Below are positions 40,079 to 48,329 of a stretch of 62,521 bases of DNA, one piece after another. Under the pieces are notes generated by a model. That model was not told the origin of the DNA and made no database searches. It saw only the letters and a list, made by a program, of their open reading frames with translations. Each line of letters starts with the position of its first letter. Positions within the stretch are counted from its first letter, which is position 1. This stretch comes from Candidatus Aquivivens invisus (GTDB lineage: Bacteria > Omnitrophota > Gorgyraeia > Aquiviventales > Aquiviventaceae). A program made the position numbers and the translations under genes. The DNA is taken from the NCBI GenBank assembly GCA_001804415.1, contig MHGA01000027.1, forward strand, positions 1 through 62,521, in the 5' to 3' direction.

Positions 40079-41605
40079 TTACGCGTCAAAATAGAGGTAG
40101 AATTCGTACGGATGCGGCCGCAGGCGGACCTTGTCGATCTCCTGCCGCTTGAATTCCACCCACACGTCGATGACGTCTTTGGTGAACACGCCGCCCTTGA
40201 GCAAGAACTCGTGGTCGCGCTCGAGCGCGTCGAGCGACTCATCGAGCGACCCGGGCACCTGCTTCGGGGCCCGATCGGCCGACATCTCGTAGATATTCTC
40301 ATCCACCGGCTTGCCCGGATCGAGGCGGTTCTGAATCCCGTCGAGCCCCGCCATCAGCATCGCGGCGAAGGTCGTGTAGGGATTGCAGGACGGGTCCGGC
40401 GCGCGGAACTCCACCCGCTTGGACTTGGGATACTCGACATAGACCGGAATGCGGCAGATGGCGGAGCGGTTCCGAGCCGAGTAGGCCAGGTTCACCGGCG
40501 CCTCGTAGCCTGGGACCAACCGCTTGTAGGAGTTGGTCGTCGGGGCCGCGAAGGCCAGGATGGCGGGGGCGTGCTTGAGCAGCCCGCCGATATACCACTT
40601 GCACATCTGGCTGATGTTGGCGTAGCCGCCCTTCTCGAAGAAGAGGTTCCGATCCTGCTTCGTCAGGCTCTGGTGGGTGTGCATCCCGGAGCCGTTGTCG
40701 CCGAACAGCGGTTTGGGCATGTACGTCGCGACCTTGTTGTGCCGGCGGGCGACGTTCTTCGTAATGTACTTGAGCATCAACAGGTGATCGGCCATCTTGG
40801 TCAGCGTCGAGTAGCGCATGTCGATCTCGGCTTGGCCGGCGGTGGCCACCTCGTGATGGTGCTTCTCGACCGGCACCCCGACCGCGCGCGCCTTGCTCAT
40901 GATTTCGCTGCGGATGTCCTGGAAGATATCGTGCGGAGGAACCGGGAAGTAGCCTTCCTTGTAGCGGGGTTTGTACCCGAGGTTCGGCTTTTCATCCCGC
41001 CCGGTGTTCCAGTCCCCTTCGATGGAGTCGACGAAATAGTAGCTGGCGTTTTCCGTCGAGTCGAAGCGGATGTCATCGAAGATGAAGAACTCCGGCTCCG
41101 GCCCCCAGTAGCTCACATCCGCGATGCCGGTCTTCTTCAGGTACGCCTCGGCTTTCTTGGCGATGTAGCGGGGATCACGACTGTAGGGCTGCCTGGTGAG
41201 CGGGTCGTAGATGTCGCAGATGAGGCTGAGGGTTGGCGTCTCACACACCGGATCCAAGACCGCGGTGGTCGGGTCAGCGAACAGATTCATGTCGGATTCT
41301 TGGATCTTCTGGAAGCCTCGGATGGAGGAGCCGTCGAACCCGATGCCGTCGACCCAGATCCCTTCCCTCGCGCTCTGGGCGACTTCCTCGACCGGGATAG
41401 AGAAGTGCTGCCACAACCCGGGCAGGTCGTTGAACTTCAAATCGACGACGGTGATCTTGTGCTTGCGGATGACCTCCCACACGCGCTTCACCGCGTCCTC
41501 GGTGATATTCGCCGGGCGGGAGTTGGTGGACGCCTCCGCCCGCACCCTCGGGCGGCTGGCGGCTACGGCGATCCGTCGACGAGCAGCAAGCGTCCCTCTA
41601 GGCAT
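40079..41605 (-). CDS. glnA: Type I glutamine synthetase
   Basis: FDGSSIRGF, GPEPEFFIF, HHEVATAGQ, GDNGSGMH, RLVPGYEAP, NIYE adenylylation-site Tyr; AAGGAGGT RBS. Confidence 0.97.
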   Translation of the reverse strand: MPRGTLAARRRIAVAASRPRVRAEASTNSRPANITEDAVKRVWEVIRKHKITVVDLKFNDLPGLWQHFSIPVEEVAQSAREGIWVDGIGFDGSSIRGFQKIQESDMNLFADPTTAVLDPVCETPTLSLICDIYDPLTRQPYSRDPRYIAKKAEAYLKKTGIADVSYWGPEPEFFIFDDIRFDSTENASYYFVDSIEGDWNTGRDEKPNLGYKPRYKEGYFPVPPHDIFQDIRSEIMSKARAVGVPVEKHHHEVATAGQAEIDMRYSTLTKMADHLLMLKYITKNVARRHNKVATYMPKPLFGDNGSGMHTHQSLTKQDRNLFFEKGGYANISQMCKWYIGGLLKHAPAILAFAAPTTNSYKRLVPGYEAPVNLAYSARNRSAICRIPVYVEYPKSKRVEFRAPDPSCNPYTTFAAMLMAGLDGIQNRLDPGKPVDENIYEMSADRAPKQVPGSLDESLDALERDHEFLLKGGVFTKDVIDVWVEFKRQEIDKVRLRPHPYEFYLYFDA

Positions 41606-41683: not shown

Positions 41684-41711
41684 AGTATAGCAAAGACCTT
41701 CCTGCGGTCAA
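41684..41711 (-). promoter_or_regulatory. glnA promoter
   Basis: TTGACC-16 bp-TATACT with TGn extension. Confidence 0.6.
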
Positions 41712-41720
41712 GCGCACTCT

Positions 41721-41796
41721 CAATTCGGAATGCGGAAGTGGGAATTCGGAACGCCTACGTTGACATTCCGCACTCCGCATTCGTCATTCCGCATTG
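41721..41796. repeat. Heptamer-based palindrome (CATTCCG family) between glnK and the glnA promoter
   Basis: CGGAATG/CGGAAGT/CGGAACG versus CATTCCG/CACTCCG units. Confidence 0.7.
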
Positions 41797-41799
41797 GTC

Positions 41800-42138
41800 T
41801 TACAGGGCGCCTTCCCCCCGCTCCCCGGTACGGATCCGGTACACGTCTCGGACATCCGACACGAAGATCTTCCCGTCCCCGACAGCCCCTGTCTTGGCTG
41901 AGGAGGCGATGGTCTGGATGATCCGCTCTGCGTCGCCGTCACTGACGACCAGATCCAGCTTGGCCTTCGGCAACAGGTCCACGCGGTACGATTCCCCGCG
42001 CCACTGTTGCGTTACGCCTTTCTGCTTCCCGTGGCCTTCGACCTCGCTGACGGTCATCCCGGGATAGCCGGCTTTCCCGAGGGCGCGGCGGACGTCTTCC
42101 ACTTTGTCCGGTCGAATAATGGCTTCGATTCTTTTCAT
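41800..42138 (-). CDS. glnK: PII nitrogen regulator with full T-loop
   Basis: IEAIIRP, GHGKQKG..WRGESY, TGAVGDGKIF, RIRTGE; directly after amtB. Confidence 0.93.
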   Translation of the reverse strand: MKRIEAIIRPDKVEDVRRALGKAGYPGMTVSEVEGHGKQKGVTQQWRGESYRVDLLPKAKLDLVVSDGDAERIIQTIASSAKTGAVGDGKIFVSDVRDVYRIRTGERGEGAL

Positions 42139-42145
42139 CGTCTCC

Positions 42146-43477
42146 TCACTCCGCGATCCGCTCGGCGATCCTGACGTAGGAGTACGCCGGCTTGCGTGTC
42201 ACGAACTCCGGGTAGGTCGTCTGTCCATGTTCCCCGATGTCCAACCCTTCGATTTCTTCCTGGATGCTCACCCGAATCCCCATGGTGACTTTCAGCAACC
42301 ACCACGCCGCGTACGAGGTGAGAAACGCAAAGAGCGCGACCGCTCCGATCCCCTGGAGTTGAATCATCAACTGCTTCAGGCCGCCTCCGAAGAACAGACC
42401 AGCCGCCTGACCAGGAGTCCACTGGGATTCCGCAAACAATCCGACGCAGAGGGTCCCAAAGACTCCATTGCAGAGGTGAACAGCCAAGGCGCCAACCGGA
42501 TCATCGACCTTGACCTTATCGAAGCCGATGACGGCTAACACGACCAGGACCCCGGCGATGACGCCGATAATCGCCGAGCTCATCACGCTGACGAAGGCAC
42601 AGGGAGCGGTAATCGCCACCAGGCCGGCCAGACAGCCGTTGATGGTCATCCCCAGGTCCGGCTTGCCCAGCAACATCGTGGAGAGAACCGTCGCTGACAG
42701 CATGGCGGCAGCGGCGGCGGTGTTCGTGGTGATGCAGATGCGGGAGATCGCCTCCACATCAGCCGCCATCGTGGAGCCCGGGTTAAATCCAAACCACCCC
42801 AACCACAGGACGAAACACCCGATCAACCCCAGCGAGAGGTTATGTCCTGGAATCGGATTCGCCGAACCATCCTTATTGTATTTCCCATACCGCGGCCCTA
42901 AGGCCAAGATGCCGGCTAAGCCCGCCCATCCGCCGATGGAGTGCACCTGGGTCGACCCCGCGAAGTCGAGAAATCCCTTTCCCGCCAACCAGCCGCCACC
43001 CCAAATCCAGTGGCCGATGATGGGGTAGATCAACATCGTGATCACAAAGCTGAACGCAATGAACGAGAAGTACTTGATCCGTTCTGCGACACATCCTGAG
43101 ACAATCGTCGCCGCCGTCCCACAGAACACCAGCTGAAAGAAGAACTTGGCCAGCAGTGGCACGCCGGTCCAGTTCAGCGAGGCATACACGCCTTTGTACG
43201 CTTCGCCGGTCGCCGGGCTGTTATCCGCTCCCCCAAGCAGCAGCAATCCTTCTGTACCTAGAAACGGGGTGCCGTTGCCGAACATCAACCCGTACCCCAG
43301 CACCCAGAAGCCGATTGTGGAGACTGCAAACACGATGAAGTTCTTGGACAGGATGTTCGTTGAGTTCTTCACCCGGCAGAAGCCCGTCTCGACACACGCG
43401 AAGCCGAGGTTCATGAAGAACACCAGCATCGCGGTGACGAGCGTCCACATCGTATCCGCCATCACTTTTGGATCCAT
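42146..43477 (-). CDS. amtB: Ammonium transporter
   Basis: TIVSGCVAER, GHWIWGGG, DFAGST.VH, GWFGFNPG, NGCLAGLVAIT, DDPVGALAVH. Confidence 0.96.
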   Translation of the reverse strand: MDPKVMADTMWTLVTAMLVFFMNLGFACVETGFCRVKNSTNILSKNFIVFAVSTIGFWVLGYGLMFGNGTPFLGTEGLLLLGGADNSPATGEAYKGVYASLNWTGVPLLAKFFFQLVFCGTAATIVSGCVAERIKYFSFIAFSFVITMLIYPIIGHWIWGGGWLAGKGFLDFAGSTQVHSIGGWAGLAGILALGPRYGKYNKDGSANPIPGHNLSLGLIGCFVLWLGWFGFNPGSTMAADVEAISRICITTNTAAAAAMLSATVLSTMLLGKPDLGMTINGCLAGLVAITAPCAFVSVMSSAIIGVIAGVLVVLAVIGFDKVKVDDPVGALAVHLCNGVFGTLCVGLFAESQWTPGQAAGLFFGGGLKQLMIQLQGIGAVALFAFLTSYAAWWLLKVTMGIRVSIQEEIEGLDIGEHGQTTYPEFVTRKPAYSYVRIAERIAE

Positions 43478-43525: not shown

Positions 43526-44839
43526 TTAGAAGTGGTAAATGACCTCGGCTGCCACGGTGTCCTGGTAGCTGGAGAAGCCATCGGTGTCGTGGAAGAACAC
43601 CCGCTGGTCGGCGAAGTCATGGCGATATTCCAGCCGAGCCAACACATGCTCGTAGAGCTTCCACTGGCTGGTGAGCGTCCACTCCTGGAAATCGATGTCC
43701 GGGGGCGTGCCGCCGCCGAAGCTGGTGAAGCCGGTGCGGACGTTGTCCTTGTCATCGAACCATTCCCACCGACCCGCCAGCGACCAGGTGGGGGTGAAGT
43801 CATACTTGGCATAGAGCGCCAAGCCGGTCCAGTTGATTCCCGCTTCGCTCGTGCCGGCCGGAGCCACAGCGCTCTCATGGCCGTAGTCGTAGTTGGCCAT
43901 CAGGGTCAGCTTGTCCGTCGCCTGGTAGGTCGCCACCAAGTCGATGACCGTACGCTTGTCGTTGCTGTCACCGGCTTGCTCGGCTCCGTGGATGCCGTTG
44001 AAGGACAGCGTGACGCCCTCAAGCGGCGTCAGGGTGAGGTTGCCCAGCAACGTCTTGGCTTTGTTGTTGTCATCCACGATATCCCAGCCGTTGACGACTC
44101 CCAAGGTCGTTGAGCCCCATTCCCCAAGCGGGTAGGAGGCCAGCACGCCGGTGTGGGTGAAGGGAATCGCATAACCGAAGAGGAGCGACCGGGAAAAGTT
44201 CCAGTTGGCCGGGCTTTCGATCACCTCGGCCCCTAGCAAGGTCACGAACTTCCCGATCTTGAAATCAATCCCGTCGCCGACCGGCGCATGAGCCGTCACG
44301 TAGAGCTGCTGGACATCGATATCTTCTCCAGCGGCCCCCAGTCCGGCCGACTTGATGACGGAGGCGTCATCGCCGAAGAACAGATCGGTGCGAAACCCAA
44401 ACGGCATGGCATCTGATAACGGTTTCTCAAGCACGAGCTTAAACGCGTGCGGGGTGAAACCGTTGGGCTCGTTGTCAAACACCCGGCCGCGATTCAGCCG
44501 TGTGCCCGAGGCGACCCCGGTGGTTGAGTTGGGGCTCGGCTCCGCGAAGTTAAAGACGTAGGACACATCCGCATACCCGCTCATGGCCAACCCCTGCAGG
44601 CCACTGGGCAGCTCCAACGTGGGCAGACCGGCTTTTTCGCCAAGACCCGTCCCGCCCGTGAACGTGCCGCCGCCGACTTGCGATTCCAGCTGGGCCAATC
44701 GCTGCTTCAGGACTTCAATGTCCGCTTTCAAGGCCGCTGTGTCGGCTTCGTCAGCCCCCACCGGAGCAGCCCCAAGCACCAAGCACCAAGCACCAAGCAC
44801 AAAGCCAATCGGCCAACGACGTGCTGACAAGCCCTTCAT
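43526..44839 (-). CDS. Putative outer-membrane beta-barrel porin
   Basis: Signal peptide, short coiled coil, amphipathic strands, GKFVTLLGAEVIE, terminal F (VIYHF). Confidence 0.8.
   Translation of the reverse strand: MKGLSARRWPIGFVLGAWCLVLGAAPVGADEADTAALKADIEVLKQRLAQLESQVGGGTFTGGTGLGEKAGLPTLELPSGLQGLAMSGYADVSYVFNFAEPSPNSTTGVASGTRLNRGRVFDNEPNGFTPHAFKLVLEKPLSDAMPFGFRTDLFFGDDASVIKSAGLGAAGEDIDVQQLYVTAHAPVGDGIDFKIGKFVTLLGAEVIESPANWNFSRSLLFGYAIPFTHTGVLASYPLGEWGSTTLGVVNGWDIVDDNNKAKTLLGNLTLTPLEGVTLSFNGIHGAEQAGDSNDKRTVIDLVATYQATDKLTLMANYDYGHESAVAPAGTSEAGINWTGLALYAKYDFTPTWSLAGRWEWFDDKDNVRTGFTSFGGGTPPDIDFQEWTLTSQWKLYEHVLARLEYRHDFADQRVFFHDTDGFSSYQDTVAAEVIYHF
44773..44800. repeat. (CAAGCAC)x4 perfect tandem in the porin signal peptide
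   Basis: Read directly; encodes VLGAWCLVL on the minus strand. Confidence 0.9.
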
Positions 44840-45413: not shown

Positions 45414-45455
45414 GGCGGAACCTCGTGCTCATAGGCTCTCAGGATACTCAGGCGC

Positions 45456-45493
45456 GTTACAGGCACACGACGCGCATGTTAAATCGATGTAAC
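45456..45493 (-). promoter_or_regulatory. GlnR-like box array B upstream of the PII-porin-amtB-glnK operon
   Basis: GTTAC-n6-TTAAC-n6-GTCGT-n6-GTAAC, then -10-like TATCCT (45446-45441). Confidence 0.7.
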
Positions 45494-45802
45494 TTGAGGC
45501 AGGAACCGATACCCCTCCCCAGGCACTTGCTCGATGAGCCGTTCCCCGTTGAGTTCGAGGCGCCCCTTGAGGGAGCGGATGAGCTCCCCAACAACCCCGA
45601 TCCCCCCCACATCATGGCGACCGAGACCTTCTTCGACTAACCGGCGGGTCGTGACGACATATCCGGCGTGTGTAGCCAGATACACGAGCACGGCATATTC
45701 CCGGTAGCTCATCGGCACGGGTTGGCCTCGCACCGACACCAGGTAGCGCTCCATGTCGATGGTGAGCGCTCCCTGCTGGATGATAAGCGGAGCCGTCATC
45801 AT
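45479..45802 (-). CDS. Stand-alone OmpR/PhoB-type winged-helix DNA-binding protein
   Basis: GALTID.ERYLVSVRGQPV.MSYREY.VL.YL...LIEQVPGEGYRF; no receiver domain. Confidence 0.8.
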   Translation of the reverse strand: MMTAPLIIQQGALTIDMERYLVSVRGQPVPMSYREYAVLVYLATHAGYVVTTRRLVEEGLGRHDVGGIGVVGELIRSLKGRLELNGERLIEQVPGEGYRFLPQVTSI

Positions 45803-45825
45803 GGAAAGGAGGGTAACGGAGGCAG

Positions 45826-45863
45826 GTTACCGACAGATCACGGGAGGGTTAAATCGGGGTAAC
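45826..45863 (-). promoter_or_regulatory. GlnR-like box array A upstream of the winged-helix gene
   Basis: GTTAC-n6-TTAAC-n6-GTGAT-n6-GTAAC, then -10-like TACCCT (45815-45810). Confidence 0.7.
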
Positions 45864-46540
45864 TAGGCCGGAACCACGAATTTGTAGCCGACGTGGCGGA
45901 GGGTTTCGATGTAGCGCACGCCGCGCCGCTCGATCTTGACGCGCAGGCGGCGGACGTGGACATCGACGGTGCGGGTGCCGGCGTACGATTCATAGCCCCA
46001 GACCTGATCGAGCAGGGCATCCCGCGTGAAGACGCGCCCCGGGTGGGTCGCGAGGAACTTCAGCAGCTCAAACTCCTGATGCGTCAGCGCGACCCGCTGC
46101 CCGTGGGCGTGGACCTCATAGCTCTCGAAATTGATGGCCAACGCTCCGATCTTCAAGCCGTTGGTCGGCTCCACGCGGCTGGACTTCCACATGAGAAACC
46201 GCAAGCGCTCCAGGAGGCGTTTGTCGGTCAGGGGAAGCGTCAGGTAGTCATCGACGCCGTCACTATAGTTGAGGTGCCCGAGCTGCTCCTCAGTCACAAG
46301 GGCCACCAACGGCAGGGTCTTGAGCACCCGATCCTTCCGGATGAGCCGGCAGAGATGGTGGACGTCCGTCTGCGTCTCCTCCAGATCCATAAGGATCACA
46401 TCGGTCTTGGGCGAGGCGAAATCGGCGGACGCCAACTGGCGCGAGGTCACCATCGAAACGGCATGCCCCTGCTCCAACAGGCAGGATTTGAGCAGCTTGC
46501 GCTCCTCGGCGTTATCGGTGATGAACAGGACGCGATACAT
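45863..46540 (-). CDS. Orphan atypical OmpR-family response regulator (GlnR-like)
   Basis: Receiver with ILMD but DDYLTLPL in place of the conserved K-P; LTHQEFELLKFL, TRTVDVHVRRLR, VGYKF; no kinase nearby. Confidence 0.85.
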   Translation of the reverse strand: MYRVLFITDNAEERKLLKSCLLEQGHAVSMVTSRQLASADFASPKTDVILMDLEETQTDVHHLCRLIRKDRVLKTLPLVALVTEEQLGHLNYSDGVDDYLTLPLTDKRLLERLRFLMWKSSRVEPTNGLKIGALAINFESYEVHAHGQRVALTHQEFELLKFLATHPGRVFTRDALLDQVWGYESYAGTRTVDVHVRRLRVKIERRGVRYIETLRHVGYKFVVPA

Positions 46541-46546
46541 CGAGAT

Positions 46547-46632
46547 CAGCACACAGCACACAGCAGACAGCAGACAGCATCCGTCCGGCGCGAGCTGGTG
46601 CTCTGTGTGCTGTGTGCTAACTGCTGCGTGCT
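46547..46632. repeat. Heptamer-based palindrome (CAGCACA family)
   Basis: CAGCACA x2, CAGCAGA x2 versus TGTGCTG-type units. Confidence 0.8.
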
Positions 46633-46637
46633 CGTCA

Positions 46638-48329
46638 TCAGCTTTCTTGGTAGCGGTTGGTGATGGGCATCCGGCGGTCCTTGCCGAAGGCCCGCGGGGT
46701 GATCTTGATGCCGGGAGGCCCCTGCCGGCGCTTGTATTCGCTGCGGTCCACCATGCGCACAACCGCGCGGACCACATCAGCCTCCAAGCCGTTGCGCCGG
46801 ATCATCTCCTGAATGCCCCGATCCTCTTCGACATAGGCTTTCACGATGCGATCGAGCACGTCGTAGGGCGGCAGGCTGTCTTGGTCCGTTTGGTTCTGGG
46901 CGAGCTCGGCGGTCGGGGCGCGCTCGAACACGCTCTCAGGAATCGGCGCGAGGAGGGTGCCGCCTCGGTTGCGGAAGCGGGCCAGCTGGTACACGAGGGT
47001 TTTGGGGACGTCTTTGATCACGGCGAATCCTCCGGCCATGTCCCCGTACAGCGTCGAGTAGCCGGTGGCCATCTCGCTTTTATTGCCCGTCGTCAGGACC
47101 AGCCACCCGAATTTGTTGGACAGCGCCATCAAGAGGTTGCCGCGGATGCGGGCTTGCAGGTTCTGCTCGGTCACATCAACCGGACGAGCCCCAAAGAGCC
47201 CCTTCAGCGTCTGCAGGTAGGCCTGGAAACAGGGCTCGATCGAGACCTCCTCAAACCGGATCCGTAAGGTCCGTGCGAGCCGCCTGGCGTCGTATTGGGT
47301 GGCCGGCGAGGAAAAGCGCGACGGCATGCCCACGCCCACCACCTGCTCCTTGCCGAGCGCATCCACGGCGATGGCGGCGGTCAGGCTGGAATCGATCCCG
47401 CCGGAGAGTCCCAGGACGACCGTTTCAAATCCGTTCTTGCGCACGTAGTCCCGCGTGCCCAACACGAGCGCCGCGTACACTTCGGCCAGCGGATCAAGCC
47501 ACTCGGAAGGTCGGGGCTTCATAGGAGGACGTGGCGTTGGTTGACCAGCGACCGACACCTTGGCCGCTCGATGGGAAGGGTGGCGGGACGCAACGGGCAG
47601 GCCGAGATCGACGACCAGGAGGTCCTCGTGAAATTGGCGAGCGCGTGCCAGCAACCGTCCCCCCGCGTCCAGCACGAGACTGCCCCCGTCAAACACCAGC
47701 TCGTCCTGTCCGCCCACAAGATTGCAGTAGGCCACGCTCATCCGATTAGCCTTGGCCCGCTGCGAGAAGAGCTGTTGGCGCTCCCGGGATTTGCCGGCGT
47801 GATAGGGGCTGGCCGAGAGATTGACCATGAGGGAGGCGCCTGCGCGGTGAAGCGCCTGCGCGGGGAATGGCTCCCAGAGATCCTCGCAGATCGAGATCCC
47901 GAGCCGCATCCCGTGGAGGTCCACCAACAACGGCCGCGCGCCGGGACTGAAGTAACGCCGCTCGTCAAACACCCCGTAGTTGGGGAGACACCGCTTGTGG
48001 TAGGTGGCGCGGTGCCGTCCGTCGGCCAGCACCCCGGCCGCATTGAACAAGCGCCCGCGGGCATCCCGATCCACGAATCCCACGAGCGCCACGAGCCCCC
48101 CCGTCAGGGGGCAGAGCCGACGCACGGCGCGCAGGTTGTCTTCCACGAAAGTCGGTTTGAGGAGCAGATCCTCGGGGGGATAGCCGGTGATCGCCAGCTC
48201 AGGCAGCACCACGACATCGGCCCGCCAGGCTTTGGCGTGCAGGATCCCCTCGGCGACCTGACGGCAATTGCCGGTCAGATCACCCACGGTCGCATTCAGT
48301 TGGACCAAGGCCACCCGCAGGGTCGGCAT
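46638..48329 (-). CDS. nadE: Glutamine-dependent NAD+ synthetase
   Basis: Nitrilase domain (PELAITGYPPEDL, KRCLPNYGVFDE.RYF, ICEDLW) plus LGLSGGIDS, NLQARIRG, TGNKSE, PTAEL. Confidence 0.96.
   Translation of the reverse strand: MPTLRVALVQLNATVGDLTGNCRQVAEGILHAKAWRADVVVLPELAITGYPPEDLLLKPTFVEDNLRAVRRLCPLTGGLVALVGFVDRDARGRLFNAAGVLADGRHRATYHKRCLPNYGVFDERRYFSPGARPLLVDLHGMRLGISICEDLWEPFPAQALHRAGASLMVNLSASPYHAGKSRERQQLFSQRAKANRMSVAYCNLVGGQDELVFDGGSLVLDAGGRLLARARQFHEDLLVVDLGLPVASRHPSHRAAKVSVAGQPTPRPPMKPRPSEWLDPLAEVYAALVLGTRDYVRKNGFETVVLGLSGGIDSSLTAAIAVDALGKEQVVGVGMPSRFSSPATQYDARRLARTLRIRFEEVSIEPCFQAYLQTLKGLFGARPVDVTEQNLQARIRGNLLMALSNKFGWLVLTTGNKSEMATGYSTLYGDMAGGFAVIKDVPKTLVYQLARFRNRGGTLLAPIPESVFERAPTAELAQNQTDQDSLPPYDVLDRIVKAYVEEDRGIQEMIRRNGLEADVVRAVVRMVDRSEYKRRQGPPGIKITPRAFGKDRRMPITNRYQES

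Follow-up and report, generated by a model that had tools for sequence, protein, structure and literature searches.

GlnR has been described as the actinobacterial answer to nitrogen control. Its activation complex holds four protomers arranged head to tail on a1-b1-a2-b2 sites that lie 6 nt apart; the b2 site falls downstream of -35, where its protomer contacts the beta flap and sigma region 4, and the a2 site is atypical and dispensable (PMC10235972, PMC5826061). Base-specific contacts of Saccharopolyspora erythraea GlnR are made by R186, V190, R193 and R194 (PMC10235972). Here we analyzed contig MHGA01000027.1 (positions 1-62,521, forward numbering, hereafter the window) from the assembly GCA_001804415.1 of Candidatus Aquivivens invisus, a member of the Omnitrophota. 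The window encodes a 225-aa OmpR-family regulator, P0001, and carries two arrays of phased pentamers, A and B, which precede a receiver-less winged-helix gene and an ammonium-transport operon. An earlier note, made from the letters of the sequence, had proposed a GlnR-like nitrogen control circuit at this locus, either homologous to GlnR or convergent with it.

We consider it probable that P0001 is a GlnR-like, kinase-independent regulator that activates transcription through arrays A and B. The earlier proposal of such a circuit outside actinobacteria is supported by motif conservation, the lack of a kinase at the loci seen, the GlnR_1st domain, the solved relatives 8HIH and 8HIG, a well-supported split in the regulator tree and the promoter geometry, and GlnR-type control very probably also operates outside actinobacteria. 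A literature search found no paper joining an OmpR-type GlnR with Omnitrophota or Chloroflexota. NtrBC with sigma-54 and cyanobacterial NtcA share the proposed role of this locus, which is to turn on amtB, glnK and genes of assimilation when nitrogen is limiting, although their protein families and promoter types are unrelated.

Arrays A and B and their promoters

Both arrays consist of four pentamers in direct orientation with 6-nt spacers, and they are present exactly as the earlier note had written them. On the minus strand, array A reads GTTAC-CCCGAT-TTAAC-CCTCCC-GTGAT-CTGTCG-GTAAC and array B reads GTTAC-ATCGAT-TTAAC-ATGCGC-GTCGT-GTGCCT-GTAAC. The two agree at 18/20 pentamer positions but at only 9/18 spacer positions. 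Their common 38-bp pattern (GTTAC-n6-TTAAC-n6-GTnnT-n6-GTAAC) had 0 chance matches in 100 dinucleotide-preserving shuffles of the window, even at 3 mismatches, and a weight matrix built from 10 arrays found A and B as the only sites in the 62.5 kb. Along the minus strand, nadE is followed by the response regulator, then array A, the winged-helix gene, array B and the genes for short PII, BBP2 porin, amtB, glnK and glnA, an order that confirms that the arrays precede the winged-helix gene and the run from PII to glnK.

A TAnnnT hexamer follows each array, TACCCT at 10 bp after A and TATCCT at 9 bp after B, and a search for a sigma-70-type -35/-10 pair at both arrays found none, as had been read from the sequence before. 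The sigma-54 promoter consensus was not enriched in the window either (50 matches vs 68.6 expected), in agreement with the statement that no sigma-54 elements are visible there. Taking TAnnnT as the -10 element puts the pentamers at about -60/-56, -49/-45, -38/-34 and -27/-23, and the least conserved of them is the third. The geometry of an activator-dependent promoter, as described earlier, is supported in some detail, since the four 5-bp sites in direct orientation, the 6-nt spacing, the last site past -35 and the least canonical third site are those of the published GlnR complex. This shared layout makes activation by recruitment the most economical reading. The pentamers themselves (GTwAC/TTAAC/GTnnT/GTAAC) differ from the GlnR boxes in part: the a-type site of GlnR is gTnAc, whereas its b-type site, GaAAC, is TTAAC or GTAAC here.

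To place the arrays in a wider setting, we scanned metagenome contigs with the pattern GTWACNNNGAWTTAAYN6GTN9GTAAY, which does not include the TAnnnT hexamer. The scan yielded 147 matches in 118 contigs; 132 were non-redundant, and 74 of these stood before nitrogen genes. The gene downstream of the array was a BBP2 porin (38 hits), a winged-helix gene (28), amtB (13), a PstS-like gene (12) or a GAF-ANTAR gene accompanied by PII and NIR_SIR genes (5), and the rest were contig ends or unclassified. Among the 74 non-redundant nitrogen-class arrays, 63 had TAnnnT exactly 9-10 bp downstream, and the hexamer hardly ever occurred at another offset. By class, the hexamer stood at offset 10 in 21 of the 24 non-redundant arrays before winged-helix genes, and at offset 9-10 in 31 of the 33 before porins. 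Such a fixed distance indicates that the spacing is under selection, the signature of an activator site that replaces the -35 element.

The third pentamer varies with its context, both in the window and over the metagenome loci L092-L209. Beside a winged-helix gene it is GT[C/G/T][A/G]T in 53/57 non-redundant arrays, and directly before amtB, GAF-ANTAR or pstS it is GTAA[C/T] in 24/26. The winged-helix paralog might read this context-dependent box.

One match, in the unrelated contig L104 (3497-5127), preceded two tandem soluble histidine kinases in a heavy-metal-efflux-like locus of another organism; we set it aside as probably the box of another OmpR-family regulator.

The regulator and its relationship to GlnR

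P0001 ends in an OmpR/PhoB winged-helix domain (Pfam Trans_reg_C, 95.1 bits, cut-off 26.2). Its receiver passes GlnR_1st marginally (30.4 bits, cut-off 27) and also passes Response_reg (32.7 bits, cut-off 30.2), and the NCBIfam PhoB model scores 139.5 bits, below its cut-off of 296, which leaves P0001 outside the canonical PhoB/PhoR systems. In the family alignment, the conserved Lys of the receiver pocket is replaced by an invariant Leu102 within the motif DDYLTLP, which sets P0001 apart from GlnR, and the Pro of the same motif is kept. The claim that the receiver lacks Lys-Pro was therefore right for the Lys and wrong for the Pro. The phospho-acceptor position, Asp52, is retained and invariant in the family, and the second acidic residue and the Thr of the pocket are variable.

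No histidine-kinase-like open reading frame was found anywhere in the window (phmmer, six kinase queries), none was called within 8 kb in identical public contigs and none stands beside the orthologs in the loci seen, in line with the earlier remark that the regulator has no kinase nearby. The window also holds no other OmpR-type open reading frame. P0001 thereby resembles GlnR in being an OmpR-type protein without a kinase at its loci and with a degenerate receiver in which the Asp is kept. The likeness extends to DNA recognition: R190, V194, R197 and R198 of P0001 correspond to R186, V190, R193 and R194 of S. erythraea GlnR and are invariant in the family, and all listed DNA-contact residues of GlnR are retained.

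The best solved relatives of P0001 are GlnR of Mycobacterium tuberculosis (8HIH, 119 bits) and of S. erythraea (8HIG), with MtrA third at 111 bits; the structures 8HIH and 8HML are those of GlnR (PMC10235972). The nearest named relatives come from Candidatus Omnitrophota/Omnitrophica genomes assembled from metagenomes. Neighbours were collected by an unbiased HMMER search of 1.8 billion cluster representatives; a peptide-pattern scan of contigs favoured GlnR-like proteins, and its ranking was not used. The receivers of the HMMER neighbours are mostly degenerate. Among the 134 nearest 50%-cluster representatives, 58 match GlnR_1st and 34 match Response_reg, and a canonical pocket is present in only 4.

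Phylogenetic analysis separated P0001 and actinobacterial GlnR, together with the array-linked Dehalococcoidia regulators, from 18 canonical OmpR-family proteins (including PhoB, OmpR, CpxR, CreB, ArcA and KdpE of Escherichia coli, MtrA of M. tuberculosis, and VbrR) by a branch with 100/99 support. The split was retained with the DNA-binding domain alone (96/83). Structure comparison gave a more general picture. The AF2 model of P0001 (predicted local distance difference test score, pLDDT, 85) aligned with the GlnR DNA-binding domains 8hig and 8hml at 53-54% identity and a template-modelling (TM) score of ~0.9, and Foldseek returned a generic OmpR/PhoB fold with RpaA, GlnR, PhoP and MtrA close together. 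Because several subfamilies rank alike, the structure comparison cannot discriminate GlnR membership. Phylogeny and structure were among the checks suggested at the outset; the tree places P0001 on the GlnR side, and the structure is neutral.

We also considered P0001 as the sister of actinobacterial GlnR and rejected this, since the two form separate clades within a GlnR-like group that has no supported internal order, in an unrooted tree. Between homology and convergence, which the earlier note had left side by side, these comparisons speak for homology within a GlnR-like subfamily and do not extend to strict orthology.

PhoB and PhoP share with P0001 the fold and the recognition-helix residues, and their sites share with the arrays the direct repeats phased at 11 bp and a position ~10 bp upstream of -10, where the box takes the place of -35; in other metagenome contigs, pstS is preceded by arrays of this pattern. 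PhoB, however, has a canonical receiver and the kinase PhoR and lies across the 100/99 branch, whereas P0001 has a non-canonical receiver and no kinase in the window, and its arrays precede nitrogen genes. MtrA, close to P0001 among the solved relatives, is likewise canonical: it is phosphorylated, has the kinase MtrB and groups with the canonical proteins across the split.

Conservation of the module and the protein predicted to read it

The nadE-regulator pair is kept in the Omnitrophota loci L081 and L087-L090, and across relatives whose regulator is 57-60% identical. Downstream of it, sometimes after 1-4 kb of inserted genes, lies a module consisting of an array, the winged-helix gene, a second array and the porin gene, which amtB and glnK follow where the fetched contig reaches that far. 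In L002, L087, L089 and L090 (regulator 57-60% identical), arrays A and B flank the winged-helix gene although the surrounding intergenic DNA differs; those of L002, a locus excluded from matrix building, score 40.7 and 40.8. The closer relatives L081 and L082 (87% and 86%) place an array after the stop codon of the regulator, followed by GAF-ANTAR, PII and NIR_SIR reductase genes. Its first pentamer is GTAAC in L081 and TTAAC in L082, and both continue as n6-TTAAC-n6-GTAAA-n6-GTAAT. Lack of conservation of the motif in relatives, which the earlier note had named as evidence that would speak against it, did not materialize, for the arrays stand at orthologous promoters and recur across phyla.

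The arrangement is also found in a more distant setting. On five Dehalococcoidales-like contigs (L108, L110, L176, L189 and L198), a regulator that shares 35-37% identity with P0001 has an array within ~50 bp downstream, and amtB comes next. The regulator of these five contigs matches that of the named Dehalococcoidales genome L009. Where a contig reaches far enough, glnK and glnA come after amtB, and nadE is nearby in L176 and L198. The regulator-array-amtB arrangement occurs in L131, L193 and L190 as well, and none of the contigs that carry it has a separate winged-helix gene.

In L190, an AT-rich contig (GC fraction 0.34), six phased pentamers (744-830) separate amtB from the gene for a 215-aa relative of the regulator. 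The amtB promoter of Streptomyces has three boxes, and the six-pentamer array recalls it.

Two proteins of the locus could read the arrays, P0001 and its receiver-less paralog P0002. Aligned with the GlnR DNA-binding domains, P0002 has lost the Trp equivalent to W177 and the Thr, Arg and Asn of the wing. The paralog carries Glu at the equivalent of V190 and His or Ser at that of R194, and in the window it also has Gly at that of R186. It keeps the two tyrosines of the head-to-tail interface between GlnR DNA-binding domains, and most orthologs retain Arg at the equivalents of R186 and R193. On the strength of these lost contacts, and of arrays that stand beside the regulator without a winged-helix gene, we assign the arrays to the full-length regulator: comparison of the sequences points to P0001 as the predicted binder and to P0002 as a possible modulator.

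It would be possible, in principle, for P0002 itself to read the arrays, autoregulating at A and controlling the porin and amtB at B, with P0001 serving another target such as nadE. The winged-helix gene of the Omnitrophota always lies between two arrays, inserted genes can part the regulator from the winged-helix module (L087, L089 and L002), and the retained tyrosines and arginines would suit a DNA-binding role. Against this stand the residues that P0002 has lost or exchanged and the arrays without an adjacent winged-helix gene, namely those before GAF-ANTAR in L081 and L082 and those before amtB on at least eight Dehalococcoidales-like contigs, and we regard this assignment as improbable. 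Far less credible still, at a probability close to nil, is the idea that the arrays are passive remnants of a tandem duplication of the 3' end of the regulator gene and the DNA downstream of it, an event that would have given rise to the winged-helix gene and left no operator function. P0001 and P0002 are indeed paralogous, and both arrays start at the stop-codon end of a gene for an OmpR-type DNA-binding domain. Such remnants would not explain why the pentamers of A and B were kept and their spacers were not, why the arrays of relatives are detached from stop codons yet remain at a fixed distance from TAnnnT, or why arrays before nitrogen genes are conserved across phyla. We rejected this idea as effectively refuted by the conservation pattern.

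A regulator of the OmpR family encoded elsewhere in the genome, of canonical PhoB or MtrA type, might also read the arrays, and P0001 would then be linked to them by position only. Several of the observations that favour this alternative, and some others, weigh against the assignment to a GlnR-like P0001. The base-contact residues of P0001 are common to most OmpR/PhoB proteins (at least 90% conserved in alignment A2) and so do not single out GlnR. The four-box pattern stands before pstS-like genes in the 12 metagenome matches, also in AT-rich contigs, and in L180 the array lies ~2 kb from a canonical PhoB-like gene; the pattern is therefore not unique to GlnR, and which regulator reads such boxes cannot be told from them alone. 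GlnR-regulated promoters of Streptomyces are also bound and acted on by PhoP and MtrA (PMC3561978, PMC9151340), MtrA acting on the same nitrogen genes as GlnR (PMC9151340). The tree, too, keeps the Omnitrophota clade (100) apart from the GlnR clade (99-100). Within the regulon, glnA seems to be outside the array-controlled set in this species: it has a near-consensus, sigma-70-type promoter with an extended -10 element (TTGACC-16 nt-TGcTATACT, 41684-41711) and no array, and within the window neither glnA nor nadE was found to be preceded by an array or half-array. The locus was essentially absent from six metatranscriptome runs of the same samples or studies. What speaks for P0001 over such a canonical regulator is that the atypical regulator adjoins a nitrogen-gene array in three divergent lineages (the Omnitrophota, the Dehalococcoidales-like contigs, and the L131/L193 and L190 types) at 35-87% identity, and that the window itself encodes neither another OmpR-type protein nor a kinase. 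We give a canonical regulator from elsewhere in the genome a low probability, much as for P0002.

The arrays before pstS read GTAAC-n6-TTAAC-n6-GTAAC-n6-GTAAC, with TAnnnT ~10 bp further on. They occur in L092, L100, L101, L112, L143, L153, L161, L166, L178, L192 and L200 (GC fraction 0.38-0.50) and in L180, and are probably the pho boxes of other lineages.

Under the assignment to P0001, this protein would act as a kinase-independent OmpR/PhoB-type regulator of the GlnR-like subfamily, and up to four copies of it would bind head to tail on the 11-bp-phased pentamers of each array. The array would stand in for the missing -35 element and recruit RNA polymerase, in the manner of the GlnR activation complex whose structure has been solved. 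We infer the binding of P0001 to the arrays, activation as opposed to repression, the stoichiometry and the nitrogen signal from these parallels. From array A, transcription would yield the mRNA of the winged-helix paralog, predicted to be leaderless because the hexamer lies only ~7 nt before the start codon, a distance that is typical of other array loci as well. Array B would drive the operon of short PII, porin, amtB and glnK, and in close relatives the same array would drive the GAF-ANTAR, PII and nitrite/sulfite-reductase operon. Together, the array-driven operons would make up a regulon for nitrogen acquisition, which nitrogen scarcity most likely turns on.

With amtB-glnK and nitrite reduction among them, the predicted targets resemble those of GlnR. 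The locus stands out by the receiver-less paralog that two arrays flank, by the outer-membrane porin and the short PII P0003 encoded in the operon, and by the class-specific third box; GlnR differs in the first three, as it does in the lack of an array before glnA here and in the host, a diderm candidate phylum. One further step can be imagined, in which GlnR-type control is old and shared by Actinomycetota, Chloroflexota and Omnitrophota, and the Omnitrophota paralog occupies the non-canonical third box, which overlaps the -35 position, with a mixed assembly of regulator and paralog reading arrays A and B and serving as a feedback brake or a co-activator. We regard this as speculative and rather unlikely.

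The locus provides a concrete, testable model of how an uncultured candidate phylum may control nitrogen uptake, with a regulator, an operator, a promoter geometry and at least three target operons, and it suggests that the four-protomer activation mode of GlnR arose earlier, and occurs more widely, than has been assumed. Nitrogen regulons in groundwater metagenomes could be annotated with the help of the operator matrix, and the winged-helix paralog may represent a natural experiment in which a stand-alone DNA-binding domain modulates such an array.

Gene order and accompanying features

The features of the region are collected in Table 1. Downstream of glnA follow genes for a class-I glutamine amidotransferase and an amino-acid permease. 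The same locus is found, identical, on several public contigs.

Table 1 Coordinates of the features of the nadE-glnA region in the window
Feature	Positions	Strand	Basis or remark
nadE, glutamine-dependent NAD synthetase (CN_hydrolase + NAD_synthase)	46638..48329	-	Pfam families on identical public contigs; directly upstream of regulator
P0001, GlnR-like orphan OmpR-family regulator, 225 aa (predicted)	45863..46540	-	Pfam; solved relatives; alignment; trees
Array A, GTTAC/TTAAC/GTGAT/GTAAC, 6-nt spacers	45826..45863	-	Starts on last base of regulator stop codon
-10-like hexamer TACCCT	45810..45815	-	10 bp after array A; 7 nt before winged-helix ATG
P0002, receiver-less winged-helix paralog, 107 aa	45479..45802	-	Pfam Trans_reg_C 43.2 bits; between arrays A and B
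Array B, GTTAC/TTAAC/GTCGT/GTAAC	45456..45493	-	Overlaps end of winged-helix gene
-10-like hexamer TATCCT	45441..45446	-	9 bp after array B; then ~20-nt leader with GAGG before PII start
P0003, short PII paralog, 101 aa	45108..45413	-	Pfam P-II 78.2 bits; first gene after array B
BBP2 (OmpL-like) outer-membrane porin	43526..44839	-	Pfam BBP2 278 bits; start per 437-aa gene call on identical contig
amtB, ammonium transporter	42146..43477	-	Pfam Ammonium_transp 391 bits; TIGR00836 407 bits
glnK, full-length PII	41800..42138	-	Pfam P-II 113.5 bits
glnA	40079..41605	-	After glnK in gene run

The short PII gene follows array B in the window; L087, L089 and L090 lack it there, and their array B leads directly to the porin. 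In L002 (7750-7849) and L088 (6817-6953), a cyclic di-GMP-I riboswitch and pilin-like genes are inserted between the regulator and the module of winged-helix, porin and amtB genes.

Long intergenic hairpins built of imperfect heptamer repeats lie just 5' of array promoters, in the window at 46541-46640 and 41740-41800. The hairpin between nadE and the regulator has a folding energy of -48.6 kcal/mol (z = -2.4). These structures may serve as terminators or insulators. Comparable hairpins occur in relatives (L087 11700-11790, L089 8450-8515 and L090 6685-6745), each with a species-specific repeat unit.

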